Shown piece after piece: positions 8,883 through 20,375 of a stretch of DNA of 21,158 nt (position 1 is the stretch's first letter; every line of letters begins with the position of its first letter). The notes beneath the pieces were generated by a model that made no database searches, was not told the origin of the DNA, and saw nothing but the letters and a program-made list of their open reading frames with translations. Origin of the DNA: Nanobdellati archaeon (GTDB lineage Archaea; B1Sed10-29; JAGVWA01); the NCBI GenBank assembly GCA_018304505.1, contig JAGVWA010000011.1, positions 1 through 21,158 of the forward strand, in the 5' to 3' direction. Position numbers and translations under genes: made by a program.

Positions 8883-9138
8883 TTAATCGTAGACCCGGGA
8901 TCTTTTGTCCAGTTTCATGACAACGATTTTTTTGCTTGAATAGTCAATCCTATAAAGTGCCCTGTAATTACCTATTCTAACCCTAAAAACCCCGTGCTCA
9001 CCGGTTATTGTGGTGGCATTGTGTGGAACTGGGTTCTCCCCAAGCGCACCCTCAATTTTATTTATTATTCTGCTAGCTGTGTGTTTATCATGCTTGTCTA
9101 GAAATTTTTCTGGCTGTGTCATAAAAAATTTCAAACAT
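8883..9138 (-). pseudogene. RelE/ParE-family toxin, frameshifted near the 5' end
   Basis: Core FRVRIGNYRALYRID...KRSRVYD. The natural start ATG 9138 overlaps the antitoxin stop (TGATG) and reads MFEIFYD, but the RelE body (QPEKFL...) is in another frame. Confidence 0.75.
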
Positions 9139-12372: not shown

Positions 12373-13602
12373 TCAGCGTGCGATCAGCATTCTCCAGAGG
12401 GTTCCCGGGGTTATCGAGATTCGATCGATCGGCGACTCGTTTATGAACGTTCCGGCAAGCATGTCCCTGAATTCCTTGCTCGCATGTATGCGCTTTATGG
12501 CGAAGTTGAGAAGCCACTTGTGCTTTAAGAATCTCTGGAGCCTTGTCGAGTTCTTAAATTCACCCCCAATTTCCTTCAGTAGTTCATCGCGGTACTCGCC
12601 AAGGTTCTGCTTTGAAAAATCGTTATCATAAAAGGCCTTTAGAATCACCTTTGATGCCACACGGGCGCTCAGCATGCCGTTTCCAATACCCTCGCCGCTG
12701 AACGGGTCAATAAGGCCGGCGGCGTCGCCAATTAGCAGTGCCCCATCAAAAACCATCTCCCGCGGCTTGCTTCCAAGTGGCAGGTTCCAGCCAACTATCT
12801 TGCCCTTCTTCTTCGCGTTCTTGAAGCGACCTTTCATCAGCGGGTTTTTTTCAACGATTTCGTCCATCAGCTTAACTAGATTCACGTTCCGTTCTTGGCG
12901 CGCATCAACCAGCATGCCCAAGCCCACATTAGCTTCGTTTTTGTCGCCAGTTGGGAAGATCCAGAAATATCCGGGCATCACTTCGTCGACAAAATGAATT
13001 TCTATGCGATTCGTCATTCCCTCGACGCCATCATAGTACGCGCGCACCGCGATACTCGTGTTTGGGGGATCCATCAACTCCAGCCCTAACTTTTGGGCAA
13101 CGACACTAGTGGCCCCGTCAGCACCAACAACCATGCGAGAAATGAATTCGTGGTCTTGGCCCTTTGCGTCCTTGGCCTTTATTCCAACAACCCTGCTGTT
13201 GTCGAAAATCAAATCCATAACAGCGAGGCCTTCCATTACCGTTGCGTGTTTTTTGGCTTCTTGAAACACCAGGTTGTCGAACATTTGGCGCTTGCACACA
13301 AAACCGAGAAACGTCTCATCTGGTTTTGGGTTGTCGATCTCTGCCGCAATTCCTTTTGGGCTCGAGATGAGTACGCCGTTGATCTTTGCCGCTCCCGTTT
13401 TTGCAACTCGGTCCACCAAATCAAGGTCCTTGAGGATCGCCATGCTTTTTCCCGAGATGGCATCACCACAGGTCTTGTCCCGGGGAAACGTGGCCTTGTC
13501 TATTAAGAGGACGCGCTTGCCCGCCTTTCCCATGTAGATAGCGCAGGCGCTGCCGCTGGGGCCTGCCCCAACAATGATTACGTCAAAATCCGCTTGTTGC
13601 AT
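12373..13602 (-). CDS. Geranylgeranyl reductase family FAD-dependent oxidoreductase
   Basis: DVIIVGAGPSG, FPRDKTCGDAIS, VGADGATS, PGYFWIFP, LLIGDAAGLIDPFSGEGIGNG. GGAGA SD upstream. Confidence 0.93.
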   Translation of the reverse strand: MQQADFDVIIVGAGPSGSACAIYMGKAGKRVLLIDKATFPRDKTCGDAISGKSMAILKDLDLVDRVAKTGAAKINGVLISSPKGIAAEIDNPKPDETFLGFVCKRQMFDNLVFQEAKKHATVMEGLAVMDLIFDNSRVVGIKAKDAKGQDHEFISRMVVGADGATSVVAQKLGLELMDPPNTSIAVRAYYDGVEGMTNRIEIHFVDEVMPGYFWIFPTGDKNEANVGLGMLVDARQERNVNLVKLMDEIVEKNPLMKGRFKNAKKKGKIVGWNLPLGSKPREMVFDGALLIGDAAGLIDPFSGEGIGNGMLSARVASKVILKAFYDNDFSKQNLGEYRDELLKEIGGEFKNSTRLQRFLKHKWLLNFAIKRIHASKEFRDMLAGTFINESPIDRISITPGTLWRMLIAR

Positions 13603-13630: not shown

Positions 13631-13726
13631 TAATCCGCTGTAATCTATTGCTTGTAATCTGCTGTAATCTATTGCTTGTAATCCGCTGTAATCTGTTGTT
13701 TATAAGCTTCTGTAATCTATTGCTTG
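13631..13726. repeat. Four 24-bp tandem units in the GGR promoter region
   Basis: TAATCCGCTGTAATCTATTGCTTG / TAATCTGCTGTAATCTATTGCTTG / TAATCCGCTGTAATCTGTTGTTTA / TAAGCTTCTGTAATCTATTGCTTG. Confidence 0.92.
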
Positions 13727-13796
13727 TTCCTGCTTAAGCTTTTTACGCCGCGCTGTAATTTAAAGTTTACGCTGGCCGCGCCGTTGTCAGTGCACC

Positions 13797-15113
13797 TCAC
13801 AGGTATTGCTCTGTGTAAAGTGCCGTGGCATAAATAAGAAACTGACTCATGCTGTTGTTTTCGATTGCCTGGTAGTACCTTTCTTTTGAATCTGCTTCGA
13901 AGGTAACTGGAAAATAATCTCTCGAGATGAGCAAATTGAAAATCAATCTAGCTACCCTGCCGTTGCCGTCTTGAAACGGGTGAATCATAACAAACTGCTG
14001 GTGTACAACAGATGCCAAAATAAATGGGTGCAGCGTGTCCTTGTTTTCCCTGTACCACGTCATCAGTGAACGCATTCTTTCTTTTACGTGCACCGGCGGC
14101 GTTGTGGGGTGGTTTCCAACCACGTTGTAGCCCGCCTTGTACTTGCCGGCGCTTTTGCTGATGTTCTTTTCTATAAAATAGTGCAGATCTTTTATCAGCG
14201 CCCCGTCAAAGTCGCTCGCCGACTTTTGCTGCGCCCACTCAAAAGCCTCTGCGGTATTTATCGTTTCATGCAGGTCCTTAGCTTTTGCGTACCTGGGAAA
14301 GGTTCCTGCGGTGATGTACTTGGTGACTTCTGATGCGGTTAGGGGGTTTCCCTCTATCCGATTTGTGTTGTACACGTACCTATATTTCCGCTGCTTTTCC
14401 AACTCGTCCCTCGTTGCTTCTGGCAAGCTCTTCAGATAATACGCATGCTGTTTAGTGATTTCGCCAATTTTGGCCAGTTGTATCATTATTCTCTCATCTG
14501 GGGCATATGCCCTTGCTTTGTCAAGAAAGTAATCCCCTCCTTGCACATAGTGCTCGTCACACGCCTGCTTTATCCCCTTGTCCGATTGTGCCCCCCGCGG
14601 TTTTCTTGCTGCTGTTTTCTCAAGCTTTTCCAAAAATTCTAAGTACTCATCAGCAGTTACCCTTGGCACAATGTTGAAGTAATCCAACAGTGTTCTTGCT
14701 ATCGTTTCGTTGGCCCGTAGGCTTGCCGTCAGCGGCCTCTTTTTCGTTATCAGCGCGATCTTTAACCTGTGCAACTGCCTTGTCTTTCTTATGCCGTTGA
14801 GGCTAGCGTTTTTTGCAATTTCTAAACTCTTGCTGCCGGCCAGCAGTCTGAGGAGCTTTTCTGTTCCCGGCGAAATCAGGAAGAGGTAGTCCTTTGGTGC
14901 TATTTCCCTTAGCAAAATCAGCTTCCTGGCCTTTTCACTTGCTGGGTTTGCTATGTACGTTTTTCCTTTTTTCGTTATCAGGCCATCCGTCCTAAGTGCT
15001 GCTAGCTGAGTGTACAGGTTCGGCAACGCGGTCTGTGTTTTTTCTGCTAGCTCTTGAGCTGTGAGGCCCTCTGGGCGCTTGAACAAATAACTTAGCACTA
15101 TGTACTTCTTCAT
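13797..15113 (-). CDS. Fic-domain protein with N-terminal winged HTH
   Basis: Canonical Fic motif HPFQDGNGRVAR, upstream inhibitory motif TNRIEGN, N-terminal GLTAQELAEKTQTALPNLYTQLAALRTDGLI. Start could alternatively be 15128. Confidence 0.9.
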   Translation of the reverse strand: MKKYIVLSYLFKRPEGLTAQELAEKTQTALPNLYTQLAALRTDGLITKKGKTYIANPASEKARKLILLREIAPKDYLFLISPGTEKLLRLLAGSKSLEIAKNASLNGIRKTRQLHRLKIALITKKRPLTASLRANETIARTLLDYFNIVPRVTADEYLEFLEKLEKTAARKPRGAQSDKGIKQACDEHYVQGGDYFLDKARAYAPDERIMIQLAKIGEITKQHAYYLKSLPEATRDELEKQRKYRYVYNTNRIEGNPLTASEVTKYITAGTFPRYAKAKDLHETINTAEAFEWAQQKSASDFDGALIKDLHYFIEKNISKSAGKYKAGYNVVGNHPTTPPVHVKERMRSLMTWYRENKDTLHPFILASVVHQQFVMIHPFQDGNGRVARLIFNLLISRDYFPVTFEADSKERYYQAIENNSMSQFLIYATALYTEQYL

Positions 15114-15135
15114 GCCTGTATTCTGCATTTTTTAG

Positions 15136-15329: not shown

Positions 15330-16022
15330 TCAGAGCAACGCCAGGAACTCCTTGGCCGTCTCAATGTTTGGTTTGAACGGAAATCGCTCGAAGAAAGACC
15401 TGAACTCTGGATAGAACTCCAGTGTGGCGTCGATGAGGGTCTGCTCCCTATCCGAGAAGTCCAGCGAGCGCATTTCCAGCTGCAGCACGTGCCGGTATGC
15501 CGGGTCGGTGTAGCACATGAACAGGTTGATGGCGTGCCACAGGAAGTCCGTCAGTTTTCGGTCCCTGACTAATGGATAGAACAGCGTAATGAGGTCGAAA
15601 TTATGTTCTTGTAGGACGGGCAGGTTGTACATGAAGAACGCGTCGTCGAGGTACAGGAAGTTCACCTGATACAATGCAGTGAGGTTGCGCGGTAGTGTAA
15701 GATCCTGGTTTGCGTGGTGAATCCTCATCAGGGCCCGGATCTTGGCCCAGTCACCCCCAGCGCTCCCTGTATCTCCCATACTCATGGAAACCCCGACGCG
15801 CCGGGTGTCTGGGGTGTACTTTACTAAAATGTTCTTGGCAACGAGGTCTGCAAGCACATCATCCTGCACGAACCTGCTGACCTTCTTGTCCGGCGTTTTC
15901 GGGTAAAAGCCCGGAACGGTGTCTCTTAGGTGCCGCGCGATCTCTGTCGCGCTTCTGGGAATTGGGTACCTGCAGAACTCCAGCGTTTTCATCTTGGCGA
16001 GGTCCTTGCTGTAGTGCACCAT
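15330..16022 (-). CDS. Hypothetical protein with probable N-terminal winged HTH
   Basis: 230-aa ORF. PRSATEIARHL...VSRFVQDDVLADLVAKNILVK resembles a wHTH. Confidence 0.7.
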   Translation of the reverse strand: MVHYSKDLAKMKTLEFCRYPIPRSATEIARHLRDTVPGFYPKTPDKKVSRFVQDDVLADLVAKNILVKYTPDTRRVGVSMSMGDTGSAGGDWAKIRALMRIHHANQDLTLPRNLTALYQVNFLYLDDAFFMYNLPVLQEHNFDLITLFYPLVRDRKLTDFLWHAINLFMCYTDPAYRHVLQLEMRSLDFSDREQTLIDATLEFYPEFRSFFERFPFKPNIETAKEFLALL

Positions 16023-16232: not shown

Positions 16233-16274
16233 CGTATATATAATATAATACGTATATATAATATAATATAATGT
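16233..16274. repeat. AT-rich tract built from a perfect 18-bp tandem duplication
   Basis: CGTATATATAATATAATA x2 at 16233-16250 and 16251-16268. Confidence 0.95.
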
Positions 16275-16275
16275 A

Positions 16276-16615
16276 TCTGTTGGTGTGTTGGTTGGTTCGG
16301 TTGTTGATTGGTTCGGTTGTTGATTGGTTTGATTGTTGGTTGATTCGGTTGTTGATTGGTTTGGTTGGGGCTGGTTTGGGTTTTGGTTGGGGTTGTTTGT
16401 GCATTTTTTGGGGGTTGGTTTGGGTTTTTTGTTGGTTCGTTTGGGTTGGTTGTGGGTGGAAGCTGGTCGCTTGACCGTGTTGGTTGTTTGACAAAAATGG
16501 GTTGCTTAGCGATGATTTTGGTGTGTTGTGGGTGTTGGGTTGTTGGTTGGTTTTTGGGTGTGTTGTGGTTGGGGTTGTTTTGGGGTTGTGGGTGTTGTGT
16601 TGCGGTACGTGTTGG
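16276..16615. repeat. Strand-biased G/T low-complexity tract, starting with five 16-bp units
   Basis: TTGGTTCGGTTGTTGA-like units at 16292-16371, then mostly G and T to ~16615. Confidence 0.9.
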
Positions 16616-16619
16616 GCCC

Positions 16620-16985
16620 CTATCGTCTGTGGTGCCTGATCAGGTGGGCTGGCGACTTTTTGTACAAACCCGTGCTGCTAGTCCTTGAGCGTACCGCCCT
16701 TTGCGGTTCTGGCGCGTGTTCTTCTGGTTCGGGGCTATAAGCCGGGCCCCCACGCCGTTGTACAAGCACAATGTCCTTAACTGATAAAACGTTTGAGTAT
16801 GAAACCGACATGTCCCGAGCCATTACACGTGCTTCTTCCTTGCTCATTGGCCGCAGGGCCTGCGTTGTGAGCTTGAGCACACCCCCCATTTCTAGGTCTA
16901 GGATTATGTCATGGACCTTGCCAACATAACCCGCTTCTGCGCTGAAGATGTCCATACCGTACATGCGTGATAGCTCTACTGTCAT
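16620..16985 (-). CDS. PRC-barrel domain protein (archaeal COG1873 / CdpB-like)
   Basis: LSRMYGMDIFSAEAGYVGKVHDIILDLEMGGV...VSYSNVLSVKDIVLV, followed by a disordered basic tail. Confidence 0.88.
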   Translation of the reverse strand: MTVELSRMYGMDIFSAEAGYVGKVHDIILDLEMGGVLKLTTQALRPMSKEEARVMARDMSVSYSNVLSVKDIVLVQRRGGPAYSPEPEEHAPEPQRAVRSRTSSTGLYKKSPAHLIRHHRR

Positions 16986-17018
16986 GATGTTTCGCCAATG
17001 AGAAATAGGAAGCAGGGG

Positions 17019-17034
17019 TTTATAATTCTTTCGT
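17019..17034 (-). promoter_or_regulatory. BRE-TATA promoter of the PRC-barrel gene
   Basis: Minus strand ACGAAAGAATTATAAA. Confidence 0.65.
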
Positions 17035-17135
17035 TTTCAGAAGCCGCACAACGAAATACTGGAAGTAGCCCCCCAGCGCGGGGCGTTGAAACAACCCCCA
17101 ACCAGGAACGCCAAACCCGGCCAGCAAGTCAAGGA

Positions 17136-18248
17136 TTACTTGTTTGCGAGCACAAACCTGATTTTTTCCTCTAGGTCAAAGACCTGCCCGTTGTCACGCG
17201 AGATTTTTTTCACCACGGGTTCTGTTAGACCCTTCTTGCTCATGATGTGCACGTCGCTCACGAGCGCAAGCCGAGAGAGCTGCTTTGCGATGCTGCCCTT
17301 TGTTTTTCCGGTTTGCTCGGCTATCTGCTCGTACGTCATGGGCTTGTTTGAGTCGCTAAGACACGTGACTATGCTCCACTGCAGCGGCGACAACCTCGAC
17401 TCGAGTTCGTTTATTTCCAGCGACCGGGTGTTTTCTGCGATTTTCTCGTTTGATTCCTTCACAATGCGCACCAGGGTAGAGGTGGGTGATAGCTCCACGG
17501 GCACGCGCTTGTCAAGTTCCGCCAAGGCGTGACTATGCTTGCCAATGATTGAGGCAATGGTGTTGCTGTTGATGCTGTGCTCCTTGTTGTGCGTCTCGTG
17601 CAGTTCGCGGCAGATCTTCTCCGCATTTTTGAGCACGTTCCTGGCGTTCAGGTCGCTCCTGACCGCGAGCTCGTGTAAGGCTTGGCTCGTGAACGGGTTA
17701 ACGCCACCGTCCATGCGCTTTTTAATCAGCTCAATCAAGTCATCTGAGCTGAACTTTGGCAACTCGATGGTGTCTGAAATGCGGTGTTTCATTGAATCAA
17801 CAATGTTTGCGTAGTCAATGGTTGAGAACACCACGGCCTTAAGCACACCAGAGTCGAAGAAAGCCTTGATTTCCTCGGTCTTGTCTTCATCAAGCTTCTG
17901 GATCTCGTCGCAAAGTAGCACGACCTTGTCTTTGCTTGAGTACGCCCCGCCGTCAAGCAGGCCGAGCAGGCGCCGGGGTTTAGTCATGAGCTTAGTCATG
18001 GAAAACTCGCTTGCTGGGGCCTGACTACAGTCATGATAGACCATGTTAAAGTCAGTCCCAAGTTCACCGGCAAGCAGCTTCAGCATCGTTGTCTTGCCAT
18101 TTCCTGCGTAGCCAACAACAGCGGTGATGTTTCCGCTGTGGATGCTTTCCTTAATTTTTTTAAGTTCACTCACCCTACCCACAAACTTTTCTGGGTGGGG
18201 CCTAATGTCGAAGGGGTTTTCCTTGAAACCATACGATTCAAACCACAT
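17136..18248 (-). CDS. AAA+ ATPase (ExeA/Cdc6-like fold) with C-terminal winged HTH
   Basis: W..YGFKENPF N-terminus, FVGRVSEL, Walker A GYAGNGKTT, Walker B LLCDEIQ, lid SDLNARNVL, C-terminal LSPLQWSIV...MTYEQIAEQTGKTKGSIAKQLSRL. Confidence 0.9.
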   Translation of the reverse strand: MWFESYGFKENPFDIRPHPEKFVGRVSELKKIKESIHSGNITAVVGYAGNGKTTMLKLLAGELGTDFNMVYHDCSQAPASEFSMTKLMTKPRRLLGLLDGGAYSSKDKVVLLCDEIQKLDEDKTEEIKAFFDSGVLKAVVFSTIDYANIVDSMKHRISDTIELPKFSSDDLIELIKKRMDGGVNPFTSQALHELAVRSDLNARNVLKNAEKICRELHETHNKEHSINSNTIASIIGKHSHALAELDKRVPVELSPTSTLVRIVKESNEKIAENTRSLEINELESRLSPLQWSIVTCLSDSNKPMTYEQIAEQTGKTKGSIAKQLSRLALVSDVHIMSKKGLTEPVVKKISRDNGQVFDLEEKIRFVLANK

Positions 18249-18259
18249 ATCAATTCTCC

Positions 18260-18437
18260 GTAGTCATTTTTGATAGCCCGCAGGCGTAGTCATTAGTCAC
18301 GGACTTAGTCACCGATAGGTTTATATAGTAGTCATGACTAGTCACCATGACTACAATTTGACTAAGACACACGTTCTATGACTAAGATGCGTGACTCTGA
18401 CTAACAAGCGTTAGTCAAGAAATGAATACGTAGTCAG
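18260..18437. repeat. Dense array of TAGTCA/TGACTA hexamers in a divergent intergenic region
   Basis: 13 perfect copies: TAGTCA at 18261, 18287, 18294, 18306, 18329, 18339, 18412, 18431; TGACTA at 18335, 18348, 18359, 18379, 18398. Confidence 0.95.
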
Positions 18438-18466
18438 GGTATATAAAGGTATTGGGGCTGTTGGGC

Positions 18467-18598
18467 ATGATAACTCTCACTGAGTTTGTGAAGGCGCTCG
18501 AAAAGAGCAGATTTGGATATAAGATCGAGAACAGGGGCTTTGTAAATATAACTGTAGACACGTCGAGGCTCCTCCTACACCCAGTCAAGGCATGCTGA
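18467..18598 (+). CDS. Small hypothetical protein (43 aa), absent from the ORF track
   Basis: MITLTEFVKALEKSRFGYKIENRGFVNITVDTSRLLLHPVKAC*. TATA GTATATAAAG at ~18439-18448. Confidence 0.55.
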   Translation: MITLTEFVKALEKSRFGYKIENRGFVNITVDTSRLLLHPVKAC

Positions 18599-18689
18599 GG
18601 GGCTGAACTCTCACTTTGGGATCAACCCTCATTTTTCTAGCTTCAGCGCTTGAATACCGGAAGTGACCCCCTGGTTTTCGGTCTTTTTT

Positions 18690-18836
18690 CTACTTTTTGC
18701 CTTCGTATACGGTGCGAACGCTCACGTTTCCCTTTTTGTTCACACGCTGCGAGCTGTACCTGTAAGGCCCGTGAAGCTGGCCGCGGGCGCACCTACAATT
18801 GGGCTTCCCACACCGCACATACCTTGAATACACCAT
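18690..18836 (-). CDS. Small basic Cys/His (zinc-binding) protein, DUF6788-like
   Basis: MVYSRYVRCGKPNCRCARGQLHGPYRYSSQRVNKKGNVSVRTVYEGKK, with the CGK..C.C....HGPY motif. ATG 18836 with TATA-like TTAAATA ~25 bp upstream. Confidence 0.75.
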   Translation of the reverse strand: MVYSRYVRCGKPNCRCARGQLHGPYRYSSQRVNKKGNVSVRTVYEGKK

Positions 18837-18869
18837 GTTGTAGTGTAAGAATAGGGGGTATTTAAGACT

Positions 18870-19230
18870 TGTGCTCAAACCCTCACATTGTGCCCGGCAA
18901 ACTGAGCACGAACCGCACGCCCCTGGGCGCGAGCATAAAACCCACCCGCGAGCATGGGGGCTCGGTACCCCCGCACGAACCCCCACAACCCCTCTGTAGT
19001 GTAAGATCTGCTGCGTGTAGTGTAAGATCCAATGTTTGGGGCCCTGAGCACAGAATCCTCACTTTGGGCACAACACACCTGAGCACACGTGCTTGGGCAT
19101 CACCGCATGCGCCCACGCCCAAGGCGCCCACAAGCCAAACCACAGCACAAACACACACATTACGCCCCCCACCCACTCAGCATACCACCCAAGCCACGCC
19201 AGCAGCCGCATAGCACCCGTATTCGCAGAA
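18870..19230. repeat. C/A-biased low-complexity non-coding tract
   Basis: C- and A-rich plus strand (e.g. CACAGCACAAACACACAC, CCCCCCACCCAC). Overlapping ORFs look spurious. Confidence 0.65.
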
Positions 19231-19249
19231 CCCTCACCTTTAGCGTGCC

Positions 19250-19395
19250 ACTTATATATGATATATCTTAATGGTTTTTGTTTATAAATTAAATTGATTA
19301 TAGCGTAAAGTATAAAAAATAAAATATGTTTTAAAACCTATAAATTAAATCGTAACGGCAAACATTTATATACTTCGTCTTATTATATTTTGTTT
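19250..19395. other. AT-rich intergenic tract containing TATA elements
   Basis: ~145 bp strongly AT-rich. TTTATATA at ~19365-19372 precedes the wHTH gene. Confidence 0.7.
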
Positions 19396-19406
19396 AGGTG
19401 AGACTC

Positions 19407-19739
19407 ATGATAAGTGCCCTTTTCTTTAAGCAAAAACCGGTGCGCGCCCTTGCCTCCCTGGCGCAAAAAGACAGGGTTTGGTATGCAAGCATGCTGTGCA
19501 AGGAAATCGATTGCACGTACCCCCATTTGACAAACCTCCTGAAGGAGTTTGAGCGTCAAAATTTGATTACGACCACCGGGCAAGGCAGAATTAAGATCAT
19601 CGAACTCACAGACACGGGCGACGACCTCGCGCACGACCTCGAAAACCTGCTGCGGCGCATGGACAAAATCGAAAAAAGCGGAGGAAGCAAGGCGCAGGAG
19701 CAAGAGGCTGAAGCGGGAGAGAAAAAGCCCGGAAAGTAA
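19407..19739 (+). CDS. MarR-like winged-HTH protein
   Basis: LFFKQKP...YASMLCKEIDCTYPHLTNLLKEFERQNLI...GRIKIIELTDTG. AGGTGA SD before ATG 19407. Confidence 0.88.
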   Translation: MISALFFKQKPVRALASLAQKDRVWYASMLCKEIDCTYPHLTNLLKEFERQNLITTTGQGRIKIIELTDTGDDLAHDLENLLRRMDKIEKSGGSKAQEQEAEAGEKKPGK

Positions 19740-19790
19740 ACTTTGGGAAAAACCCAAAAAGTTTGGGAAAACAGAATTTGGGGAAATAGC

Positions 19791-20375
19791 ATGGTGGCAG
19801 CAGAAATAAGGCACGTGGGAATCGAGGATTTTGAGACCCTGAAGATGATCTACGACAAGACAAACCCGAAGGGCGGCAAAAAGTTCGGCAGTTACCCGAT
19901 GATGGACTGGATCAAGTACCCGCGGCAGAACCAGATGCTGCTCGCATTTGTCGATGAAAAGCCAGCGGGTTTCATTATCGCGCAGCCCCGTGGAAGAAAG
20001 ACCAAGATAGTGTTCTTAAGAATTCTTAAGGCATTTGAGAAAAAGGGCACGCGGAAGCAGTTGCTTGATGCGATCACCAGCACGCTGGACGCAGGGCGCA
20101 CGGTGGAAATGGTTGTGCCGCGCTCATCAGCTGCATTGACTGGTTTTTTCAGGCGCCACGGTTTTGAGCAAACGGAAACTTATCCTGGCTTGTTTGGCAG
20201 CGGCAAAACAGGCGTGCTGTTCAGCAAAACAATTGAACTTCCAGTGTACGGCCGAACCAGGGCGCTGAAGGAAGCCGGGGAACGAGAGAAGCCGCAGGGC
20301 CTTTCGGGAACACGGGGTTTGCGCACTTCGATTTTAGAGCGCAATTTGCGGAAGCTGGACGAGATTTTAGATTGA
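19791..20375 (+). CDS. GNAT-family N-acetyltransferase
   Basis: LLAFVDEKPAGFI, FEKKGTRKQLL (degenerate motif A), FFRRHGFEQ. Confidence 0.8.
   Translation: MVAAEIRHVGIEDFETLKMIYDKTNPKGGKKFGSYPMMDWIKYPRQNQMLLAFVDEKPAGFIIAQPRGRKTKIVFLRILKAFEKKGTRKQLLDAITSTLDAGRTVEMVVPRSSAALTGFFRRHGFEQTETYPGLFGSGKTGVLFSKTIELPVYGRTRALKEAGEREKPQGLSGTRGLRTSILERNLRKLDEILD

Follow-up and report, generated by a model that had tools for sequence, protein, structure and literature searches.

A winged-helix AAA+ ATPase and the TAGTCA box array at its promoter: a candidate autoregulated division switch in a small DPANN archaeon

Why should a tiny archaeon of symbiotic type place a dense array of one short DNA box directly in front of a single ATPase gene, and does such an array mark a replication origin, a centromere or something else? 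The question is raised by contig JAGVWA010000011.1 (C13), a stretch of 21,158 bp that was analysed as a complete contig and is called the window here; it belongs to a 917-kb archaeal genome (G000; 917,116 bp in 21 contigs, 92.8 % complete). An earlier reading of the window, made from its sequence alone, had suggested that an AAA+ ATPase with a winged helix oligomerises on its own boxes, as a non-canonical initiator or segregation factor linked to division. The answer to which we give an even chance is that the module is an autoregulated, ATP-dependent transcriptional or nucleoprotein switch that acts on FtsZ-based division and is not a replication origin. We arrived at it because the same box stands upstream of both ftsZ genes of the genome and because the ATPase has a presumably co-transcribed partner that resembles the archaeal division protein CdpB2. 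The features on which the argument turns are as follows.

17136..18248, minus strand: AAA+ ATPase with a C-terminal 'LSPLQ' winged helix (P0001, 370 amino acids (aa)), based on its open reading frame (ORF), Pfam, alignment and structure model.
18261..18436 (176 bp), both orientations: box array with 13 copies of TAGTCA/TGACTA, spanning the promoter and 5' leader of the ATPase gene.
18320..18327, minus strand: TATA-like element TTTATATA, the probable ATPase promoter.
18328..18354, unstranded: nested box palindrome GTAGTCATG-ACTAGTCAC-CATGACTAC, abutting the TATA-like element on its upstream side in the sense of the ATPase gene.
17366..18027, unstranded: six intragenic TAGTCA boxes in the ATPase coding sequence.
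16620..16985, minus strand: PRC-barrel gene downstream of the ATPase gene (PF05239, 23.4 bits against a cut-off of 21.2), with a basic, proline-rich tail.
15330..16022, minus strand: conserved 230-aa protein, the last gene of the conserved set, with an N-terminal winged helix and a helical domain.

Is the array itself real? The window contains 24 copies of TAGTCA/TGACTA, compared with 6.0 ± 2.4 in 100 dinucleotide shuffles, which reached 13 at most and never 24. As the sequence-only reading had described, 13 perfect copies in both orientations occupy 176 bp upstream of the ATPase, the nested palindrome is present among them, and six more copies lie within the coding sequence, starting at 17366, 17530, 17812, 17981, 17993 and 18022. 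Its estimate of about three copies elsewhere in the window has to be raised to five (594, 3952, 5667, 8941 and 15566). The density scan that it had suggested found 248 copies in the genome (0.27 per kb), and no other 200-bp bin held more than 3, so the 13-box array is unique and comparable clusters do not recur at many unrelated loci. On the strength of the shuffles and the bin counts, we regard the observation as confirmed and far beyond chance. With its flanks the box extends to T-TAGTCA-a, and the boxes follow each other as direct and inverted short repeats about 9-12 bp apart, four of them lying between the TATA-like TTTATATA and the ATG of the ATPase.

We then asked how far this arrangement is kept among relatives of the ATPase. 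Close homologues of P0001 are rare, with 9 proteins among 5.8 billion clusters, and the wider family comprises 396 cluster representatives. The comparison covered 31 species genomes of the small DPANN phylum of the host, 11 of them at least 90 % complete, and 301 genomes sampled from another phylum, that of locus L002; loci with at least 300 bp of upstream DNA were taken for the array survey, and L008, with 47 bp only, was dropped. In the 500 bp upstream of the 37-45 % identical orthologues L002, L003, L004 and L007, the hexamer TAGTCA occurs 12, 23, 24 and 16 times, confined to positions -7 to -355 of the start codon. Across all homologues with the LSPLQ winged helix, an array that spans the promoter lies directly upstream in 12 of 12 loci: the window, L002 (genome G031), L003 (G016), L004 (G015), L007, L013 (G027), L014 (G030), L016 (G010), L017 (G012), L018 (G007), L020 (G014) and L043 (G011). 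The layout of a palindrome joined to a TATA-like element recurs in L003, L004, L013 and L014. Furthermore, every closely spaced TAGTCA pair of the genome falls inside the orthologue's array in G015 (15 of 15), G016 (14 of 14) and G031 (4 of 4). Within the phylum, the winged-helix ATPase was found in 10 of the 31 genomes, or 7 of the 11 that are at least 90 % complete.

The box is not the same everywhere. The orthologues of G027 and G030 have the looser boxes TGACA(C/G)/TGACTAG, about 9-10 by eye, with top exact hexamer counts of 5 and 4. A second subfamily (B), whose members measure 390-505 aa and combine an N-terminal 'W..QGWE..NPF' with the same C-terminal 'LSPLQ' winged helix, has arrays of CGAGTA (G010, G012), CGTGTA (G007), CGGGTA/CGAGTA (G014) or GAGTAA (G011). 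Among 30 homologues that lack the winged helix, none has an array: these are L015, a protein of 236 aa, and 29 loci of the other phylum, in which the top upstream hexamer count was 2-5 and equalled the controls taken within coding sequences, while L002's own gene, fetched as the thirtieth, gave 12. Homologues in that phylum, found in 84 of the 301 genomes, match mainly the ATPase module and often form tandem pairs. The LSPLQ-less ATPases themselves (L132-L160) are about 230-390 aa long, start with 'MWYxxYGWxxNPF' and very often occur as two adjacent paralogues.

The differences between boxes follow the part of the protein that would contact them. The recognition helix KGS(I/V)AKQLSRL goes with TAGTCA in five loci (L008 shares this helix and has no upstream DNA), R(S/A)TLAKQ(I/V)SRL with TGACAC/TGACTAG in two, YDT(I/V)RHM(I/L)KRL with CGAGTA/CGGGTA in three, and SATIRHMMHRL with CGTGTA in one. 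Because the array is kept in all 12 winged-helix loci and the box covaries with the recognition helix, we conclude that the winged helix of the ATPase very probably binds its own upstream array, as had been suggested for the window alone. Covariation of helix and box in four classes is, in our judgement from these comparisons, the strongest evidence for this reading of the array that can be obtained short of experiment.

The boxes inside the coding sequence were analysed separately. Permutation of synonymous codons in the ATPase gene gave a mean of 0.77 boxes, and 0 of 5000 permutations reached 6; hence the six copies exceed what protein sequence and codon usage would produce. By the same synonymous shuffle, L002 has 6 intragenic boxes and L007 has 5 (each 0 of 5000), L008 has 2 (P = 0.013), and L003 and L004 have none. 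The positions of the intragenic boxes are non-homologous among orthologues. These counts point to selection at the DNA level in three orthologues, namely the window, L002 and L007.

What kind of protein reads the array? The family-invariant ATPase motifs in alignment A1, i.e. Walker A GxxGxGKT, Walker B DE and an NxR sensor, are intact in P0001. Its Pfam match to AAA_22 (PF13401) reaches 29.4 bits against a cut-off of 27, and the subfamily-B protein of L016 reaches 48.6 bits. Neither Cdc6_C (PF09079) nor an Orc1 model appeared among the Pfam and NCBIfam matches of P0001, and the genome encodes a canonical Orc1/Cdc6 elsewhere, at C14:33694-34899 (Cdc6_C 78.5 bits, 2.3e-22). For these two reasons we do not count P0001 as a member of the Orc1/Cdc6 family. 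The structure model (mean pLDDT, the predicted local distance difference test score, 82.5) shows an AAA+ base and lid, a disordered linker (239-275) and then the winged helix, so that base, lid and C-terminal winged helix stand in one chain, the domain layout of Orc1/Cdc6. The best full-length structural matches by VIA-align were Drosophila Cdc6 (7jgr_G, Z 18.8 over 293 aa) and Orc1 of Sulfolobus and Aeropyrum (2qby_A, Z 17.9 over 291 aa; 2v1u_A, Z 17.8 over 300 aa). RFC subunits tie with them within 1 Z, but cover the AAA+ part alone, and RuvB is close behind. A profile search of PDB sequences placed Cdc6 7jgr_G first (E 2.9e-5), and hhalign related P0001 to the genome's own Orc1 with a probability of 89.7 %, over the AAA+ part only.

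Other evidence leads towards ExeA. In the ESM Atlas, P0001 falls among archaeal AAA_14/AAA_22 clusters, and models of the ExeA family are structural neighbours with template modelling (TM) scores of 0.61-0.65. The sensor-2 'NPR' and the N-terminal 'GFxENPF' are likewise ExeA/AAA_22-like, in line with the earlier remark that the N-terminus is not that of a canonical Cdc6. PG_binding gave no Pfam match in P0001 and the C-terminus is a winged helix, so the peptidoglycan and secretin-assembly module of ExeA was not found. The PHROGs and PADLOC matches are to generic AAA+ proteins only (clamp loader 8.2e-11, MuB-like 4.1e-7, mad8 2.6e-5, PDC-S01 3.5e-5). Taken together, the comparison with Cdc6 and ExeA that had been recommended bears out the AAA+ architecture with a C-terminal winged helix: by prediction, P0001 has the architecture of an initiator, yet by sequence it stands outside the Orc1/Cdc6 family. 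A possible paralogue at G000:C9:20871-21380 was rejected, since it belongs to a different family and has no array; judging by eye from its sequence, we take it to be of AAA_14/DUF4143 type.

If the ATPase reads TAGTCA, where else in the genome could it act? Outside C13, G000 has only two tight TAGTCA clusters, a triple at C3:71419-71442 and a pair at C8:17296-17310. The ftsZ gene at C3:70194-71270 (Pfam Tubulin and FtsZ_C) has the triple about 150 bp in front of it. The pair lies about 30 bp upstream of a second ftsZ paralogue at C8:16041-17267, just downstream of a TATA-like element; this second call is based on a match to the N-terminus of the C3 protein and on the tubulin-type glycine motif, Pfam confirmation applying to the C3 gene only. 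Exact 9-bp-spaced TAGTCA pairs number three in the whole genome, and all three are upstream of these two ftsZ genes; 0.03 were expected analytically, and 3 of 20 shuffles gave one. The proposed link to division thus finds support in clusters upstream of both ftsZ genes, in this genome only.

A second connection with division is offered by the genes downstream of the ATPase. The PRC-barrel gene encodes a stand-alone barrel, as judged from PF05239 and from profile A3, whose best PDB sequence match is 8qzo_A (E 9.6e-15). In PMC13488343 this entry is identified as CdpB2 of A. fulgidus, and PMC10120694 describes CdpB proteins as working together with SepF and FtsZ when haloarchaea divide. Homologues 39-48 % identical follow the ATPase in the subfamily-B loci L016, L017 and L018, with a Pfam value of 2.5e-9 for the L018 protein. 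G000 has five PRC genes, among which the window copy scores weakest and the four others better. A PRC gene beside a winged-helix AAA+ gene is not among the neighbourhoods described in the available text of PMC10120694, its supplementary tables aside. In G017 a homologue of the 230-aa protein adjoins the small winged-helix gene (described below), and in L003, L004, L016 and L018 homologues follow the ATPase. The model of the window protein has a pLDDT of 85.4; the winged-helix matches are weak (Z at most 6.9), and no confident fold match was obtained beyond this weak N-terminal winged helix, the helical domain remaining unmatched. The interval that separates the PRC-barrel gene from the 230-aa gene contains a TA-repeat (16233-16272) and, after it, about 320 bp of degenerate tandem repeats rich in G+T, in units of 11-27 bp, up to 16600, with a GC skew of +0.37; on the minus strand, 16233-16600 reads as a low-complexity ORF of 121 aa, rich in Q, P, T and N.

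From these results we propose how the module may work. The 370-aa ATPase, from an ExeA/AAA_22-like branch with the three-domain layout of Orc1/Cdc6, would bind DNA sequence-specifically, and its C-terminal winged helix would read TTAGTCA, as conservation and covariation suggest. Spaced at roughly one per helical turn across 176 bp, the boxes could form a scaffold on which the AAA+ module oligomerises. Occupancy of the array would set the transcription of the gene set ATPase - PRC-barrel - 230-aa protein; this autoregulation is suggested by position, because the palindrome abuts the TATA-like element and because boxes lie in both leader and coding region. In G000, the same protein may regulate both ftsZ genes through the 9-bp-spaced direct boxes. 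Such a module would be functionally comparable to DnaA acting as a transcription factor.

A dense array need not be foreign to gene regulation in this organism, as the window holds a second one.

13637-13760, unstranded: second box array, (C/T)TGTAATC in eight copies spaced about 10-11 bp, upstream of a gene for geranylgeranyl reductase (12373-13602, minus strand).

The array has the HTH-Fic gene (13797-15128, minus strand) on one side and the start of the reductase gene on the other. Because eight copies precede a lipid-synthesis gene, multi-box operators seem, from the sequence, to be an ordinary regulatory style here.

Several observations weigh against a division switch. The ftsZ link is strong in G000 but appears lineage-specific and not general in relatives: upstream of ftsZ paralogue 1, the relative's own box is absent in G010, G011, G012, G015, G016, G027 and G030, and G007 and G014 have 1-2 loose copies; paralogue 2 was examined in seven genomes, of which six lack the box in that position (G007, G010, G011, G012, G016 and G030), the seventh, G015, having a single box inside the neighbouring upstream ORF, while the flank in G027 was too short to score. 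Conservation of the PRC neighbour, which the sequence-only reading had proposed as a check, holds for the window and the three subfamily-B loci, with a CdpB2-like protein, and fails in the L003/L004 lineage, where the gene is absent. Moreover, 13-24 boxes far exceed what an autoregulator needs, being a number typical of origins, iterons and centromeres, and no known fold lies closer to the predicted one than that of Orc1/Cdc6.

On the other side of the array, a 1.15-kb intergenic gap leads to a small winged-helix gene.

18472..19237, minus strand: GTGAGRGWT repeats, all on the same strand, at 18472, 18606, 18878 and 19229, plus GTGAGGATT at ~19058.
18690-18986, minus strand: DUF6788 zinc-ribbon-like ORF inside the gap (Pfam 36.4 bits; likely ATG at 18836), with its own TATA.
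19251..19370, unstranded: AT-rich segment (82.5 % AT); among 120-bp loci of the genome, only one is richer in AT.
19407..19739, plus strand: small AF_1382-like winged-helix gene, divergent from the ATPase gene (PDB 2qvo (AF_1382), E 6.9e-14).
19743..20375, plus strand: GNAT acetyltransferase (Pfam), co-oriented with the small winged-helix gene and conserved in L002, L003 and L004.

The small winged-helix gene is a single-copy core gene, present in 22 of 31 genomes and in 11 of the 11 that are at least 90 % complete, and it also lies divergently upstream in L002, L003, L004 and L016-L018. AT-rich segments (0.71-0.89 AT) stand beside it in all loci examined, whether the ATPase is present or not. 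The gap holds 4 of the 13 genome-wide copies of GTGAGRGWT plus the one variant, and in each of the 21 loci where at least 1 kb of flank was examined (L041-L061) the small gene is accompanied by strand-asymmetric GTGAG(A/G)G repeats, with strand counts such as 6:0, 7:0, 12:1 and 13:1 and a spread of 0.3-1.1 kb. L013 and L014, in which that gene is not adjacent, lack the repeats. We therefore take the small winged helix as probably the reader of the GTGAG repeats. Because the AT-rich/GTGAG element persists without the ATPase, we assign the two elements to separate genes, the TAGTCA array to the ATPase and the AT-rich/GTGAG element to the small winged helix. To judge from composition and repeats, the latter element is the most origin-like DNA seen in these genomes.

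In both subfamilies the ATPase operon adjoins this element; that two so deeply diverged groups share one slot next to a core gene speaks for old vertical inheritance with losses. In genomes that lack the ATPase, the next gene in the slot is either the 230-aa gene (G017) or one for a protein of 120-260 aa, found in 10 genomes that belong to other orders, with an N-terminal amphipathic helix ('MGLxxWLKKK'), a coiled coil and a C-terminal winged helix (L042, L046, L047, L049-L059). The winged helix of this slot protein starts with 'LSPRL' in G004, G005 and G008, which recalls the 'LSPLQ' of the ATPase. Its N-terminal amphipathic helix had made SepF a candidate; this was rejected, as Pfam found an HTH_24 winged helix only.

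Further features of the gap were noted. The DUF6788 ORF was not seen in the equivalent region of related loci, and a 43-aa ORF at 18467-18598 (plus strand) was dismissed as a gene, having no detectable homologue in related loci. The 10-mer TAGTGTAAGA occurs 19 times in the genome against ~1.7 expected from its length, often as pairs or triplets 21 bp apart; sites lie at 15693, 18841, 18997 and 19018 in the window and at C11:4505-4556, C9:88210-88260 and C14:1383-1414 elsewhere in G000, and the DUF6788 mini-gene has one copy between its TATA and its ATG. The 10-mer probably serves another regulator as its site. No paralogous copy of the intergenic region was found by blastn, and only the TAGTGTAAGA pairs recur. 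A loose echo of the layout is seen at G000 C11:4140-4700, where a winged-helix-like gene has the AT-richest 120 bp of the genome (90.8 % AT) directly on its downstream side; three TAGTGTAAGA boxes and two GTGAGAC motifs come next. An Rfam scan of the window and four loci returned tRNAs and nothing else. Of 8 sequencing runs found to contain the stretch, none is listed as RNA.

Could the locus nevertheless be an origin? In that case a divergent Orc1/Cdc6-like ATPase would assemble on the array and open nearby AT-rich DNA, as a second or alternative chromosomal origin, which we consider unlikely. The idea draws on the AAA+, lid and winged-helix fold, whose best full-length matches are Cdc6 and Orc1 bound to origin DNA, on the profile relation to Cdc6 and to the host's own Orc1, and on a dense, bidirectional, unique array next to the ATPase gene, a DnaA-like layout, in the same 1.15-kb gap as the second most AT-rich segment of the genome. 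The flanks of canonical orc1, moreover, are short in G000 (~116 and ~320 bp) and without obvious repeats, likewise in G007, and wherever orc1 and the locus share a contig (4 of 4 genomes), 27-40 kb separate them. However, G000 and each of the 7 relatives checked encode a canonical Orc1/Cdc6, and the ATPase is limited to 10 of 31 genomes (7 of the 11 most complete). The AT-rich segment lies 0.8 kb from the array, within a small winged-helix/GTGAG module that persists without the ATPase, and in L013 and L014 the ATPase and its array stand apart from it. In G007 and G017, long runs of genes head for the region instead of leading away. On G007:C1 (248 kb) and on two contigs of G017 (569 kb), the GC and AT skews agree in sign (purine loading), and for this reason they would track the coding strand and not replication; the locus sits at a broad turning point, with genes converging on it. 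The skew check gave no positive origin signal, and beyond this we give it no weight in either direction. The lack of viral or plasmid relatives in our searches counts against an origin as well.

The same convergence of genes in G007 and G017 would suit a centromere-like or landmark site, at which the ATPase forms a nucleoprotein complex at one position, in the manner of parC, tubC, omega iterons or matS/MatP, and the PRC partner couples it to the divisome; but this signal is gene orientation alone, and we think such a role quite unlikely. The layout is that of iterons, with direct and inverted repeats about 9-12 bp apart upstream of and including the promoter of the binder operon, and the parC, tubC and omega centromeres resemble a repeat array at the promoter of the binder's operon. 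In addition, G015, G016 and G031 have a single array site per genome, the partner is CdpB2-like, and the slot protein of other orders, with its amphipathic helix, coiled coil and winged helix, is a plausible tether from DNA to membrane. Against this, no ParA-, ParM- or TubZ-type match was found among the window ORFs scanned, the context is chromosomal and not that of a plasmid, the PRC gene is absent from one lineage, and AAA+ proteins are not known to serve as segregation motors. Origin or centromere function, as first suggested for the locus, is not supported, given the canonical Orc1/Cdc6 elsewhere, the distribution in 10 of 31 genomes and the distance of the AT-rich DNA. An accessory defence or mobile-element module, in which an NTPase sensor with a helix-turn-helix happens to be autoregulated, would explain the patchy distribution and the weak PADLOC matches (mad8, PDC-S01), and the window does hold the HTH-Fic gene (Fic 7.4e-19; PADLOC PDC-S04 2.5e-36), a ParE-like toxin ORF at 8883-9134 (minus strand; Pfam 1.2e-8) and the DUF6788 mini-gene inside the intergenic region. 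We regard this as very improbable, since the shared slot argues for vertical descent with losses, there is no effector domain and no viral or plasmid relative was found, and the Fic and ParE genes do not recur as neighbours of the ATPase elsewhere.

A bolder combination would make the module a DnaA-like master switch: the initiator-fold ATPase nucleates on its unique array beside the AT-rich/GTGAG element, itself a candidate oriC or replication landmark read by the AF_1382-like winged helix, and couples replication or chromosome position to FtsZ division in DPANN archaea through the CdpB-like PRC partner and the boxes at ftsZ1 and ftsZ2. This seems to us rather unlikely. The autoregulated switch acting on FtsZ-based division would matter, as almost nothing is known of the control of replication and division in DPANN archaea, whose genomes measure 0.6-1.3 Mb. 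The locus offers a clean protein-DNA pair, whose box can be read from the genome and shifts with the recognition helix in four classes. In G000, the ATPase boxes point at both ftsZ promoters and the operon points at a CdpB-like partner. Orc1-2 of Sulfolobus was an earlier archaeal case of an initiator fold used beyond origin firing, and the ATPase, with an initiator fold but without being the initiator, would be the second archaeal example. The comparison also uncovered a phylum-wide, non-coding, AT-rich element with oriented GTGAG repeats beside a core winged-helix gene, 27-40 kb from orc1 in four genomes. In the literature searched, the supplementary neighbourhood tables of PMC10120694 aside, we found no published description of the ATPase family or of the array.

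How does the module compare with known systems? It shares with Orc1/Cdc6 the succession of AAA+, lid and winged helix (Z 17.8-18.8 over 291-300 residues), a weak profile relation and an array of presumed sites before the gene, but the ATPase has no Cdc6_C/PF09079, is not universal in the phylum and carries the ExeA-like 'NPR' and 'GFxENPF'. Its box, a 6-7-mer, is also unlike the origin recognition box (ORB). The likeness to ExeA/GspA consists in an AAA_22 match above cut-off, nearby predicted structures and the N-terminal motif before the P-loop, whereas ExeA is bacterial and, by cluster annotation, has peptidoglycan-binding and secretin-assembly domains where the present protein has a winged helix with a cognate array.

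DnaA is similar in being an AAA+ protein of the initiator/clamp-loader group with a C-terminal DNA-reading domain and short two-way boxes at its own promoter, and in G000 the ATPase has extra boxes at division genes. DnaA regulates ftsZ in Caulobacter. The DNA-binding domains are non-homologous, however (winged helix against DnaA domain IV), and there is no evidence of origin opening by the ATPase. DnaA, an initiator with AAA+ and helix-turn-helix domains, doubles as an autoregulating transcription factor, according to PMC8203912. Compared with iteron centromeres, the module has the same 10-24 short repeats about one helical turn apart, upstream of or overlapping the promoter of the binder operon, but it is chromosomal, the window ORFs scanned gave no match of ParA/ParM/TubZ type, and the binder itself is an AAA+ ATPase. 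In the plasmid centromeres parC/ParR, tubC/TubR and the omega heptads, iteron arrays lie at the promoter of the binder operon. The last resemblance is to the CdpB proteins (Haloferax CdpB1-3; A. fulgidus CdpB2, PDB 8QZO): the gene downstream of the ATPase encodes a single PRC barrel whose nearest solved relative is CdpB2, but this barrel is the weakest of five in its genome, ends in a basic, proline-rich tail and has a winged-helix AAA+ protein as its neighbour.

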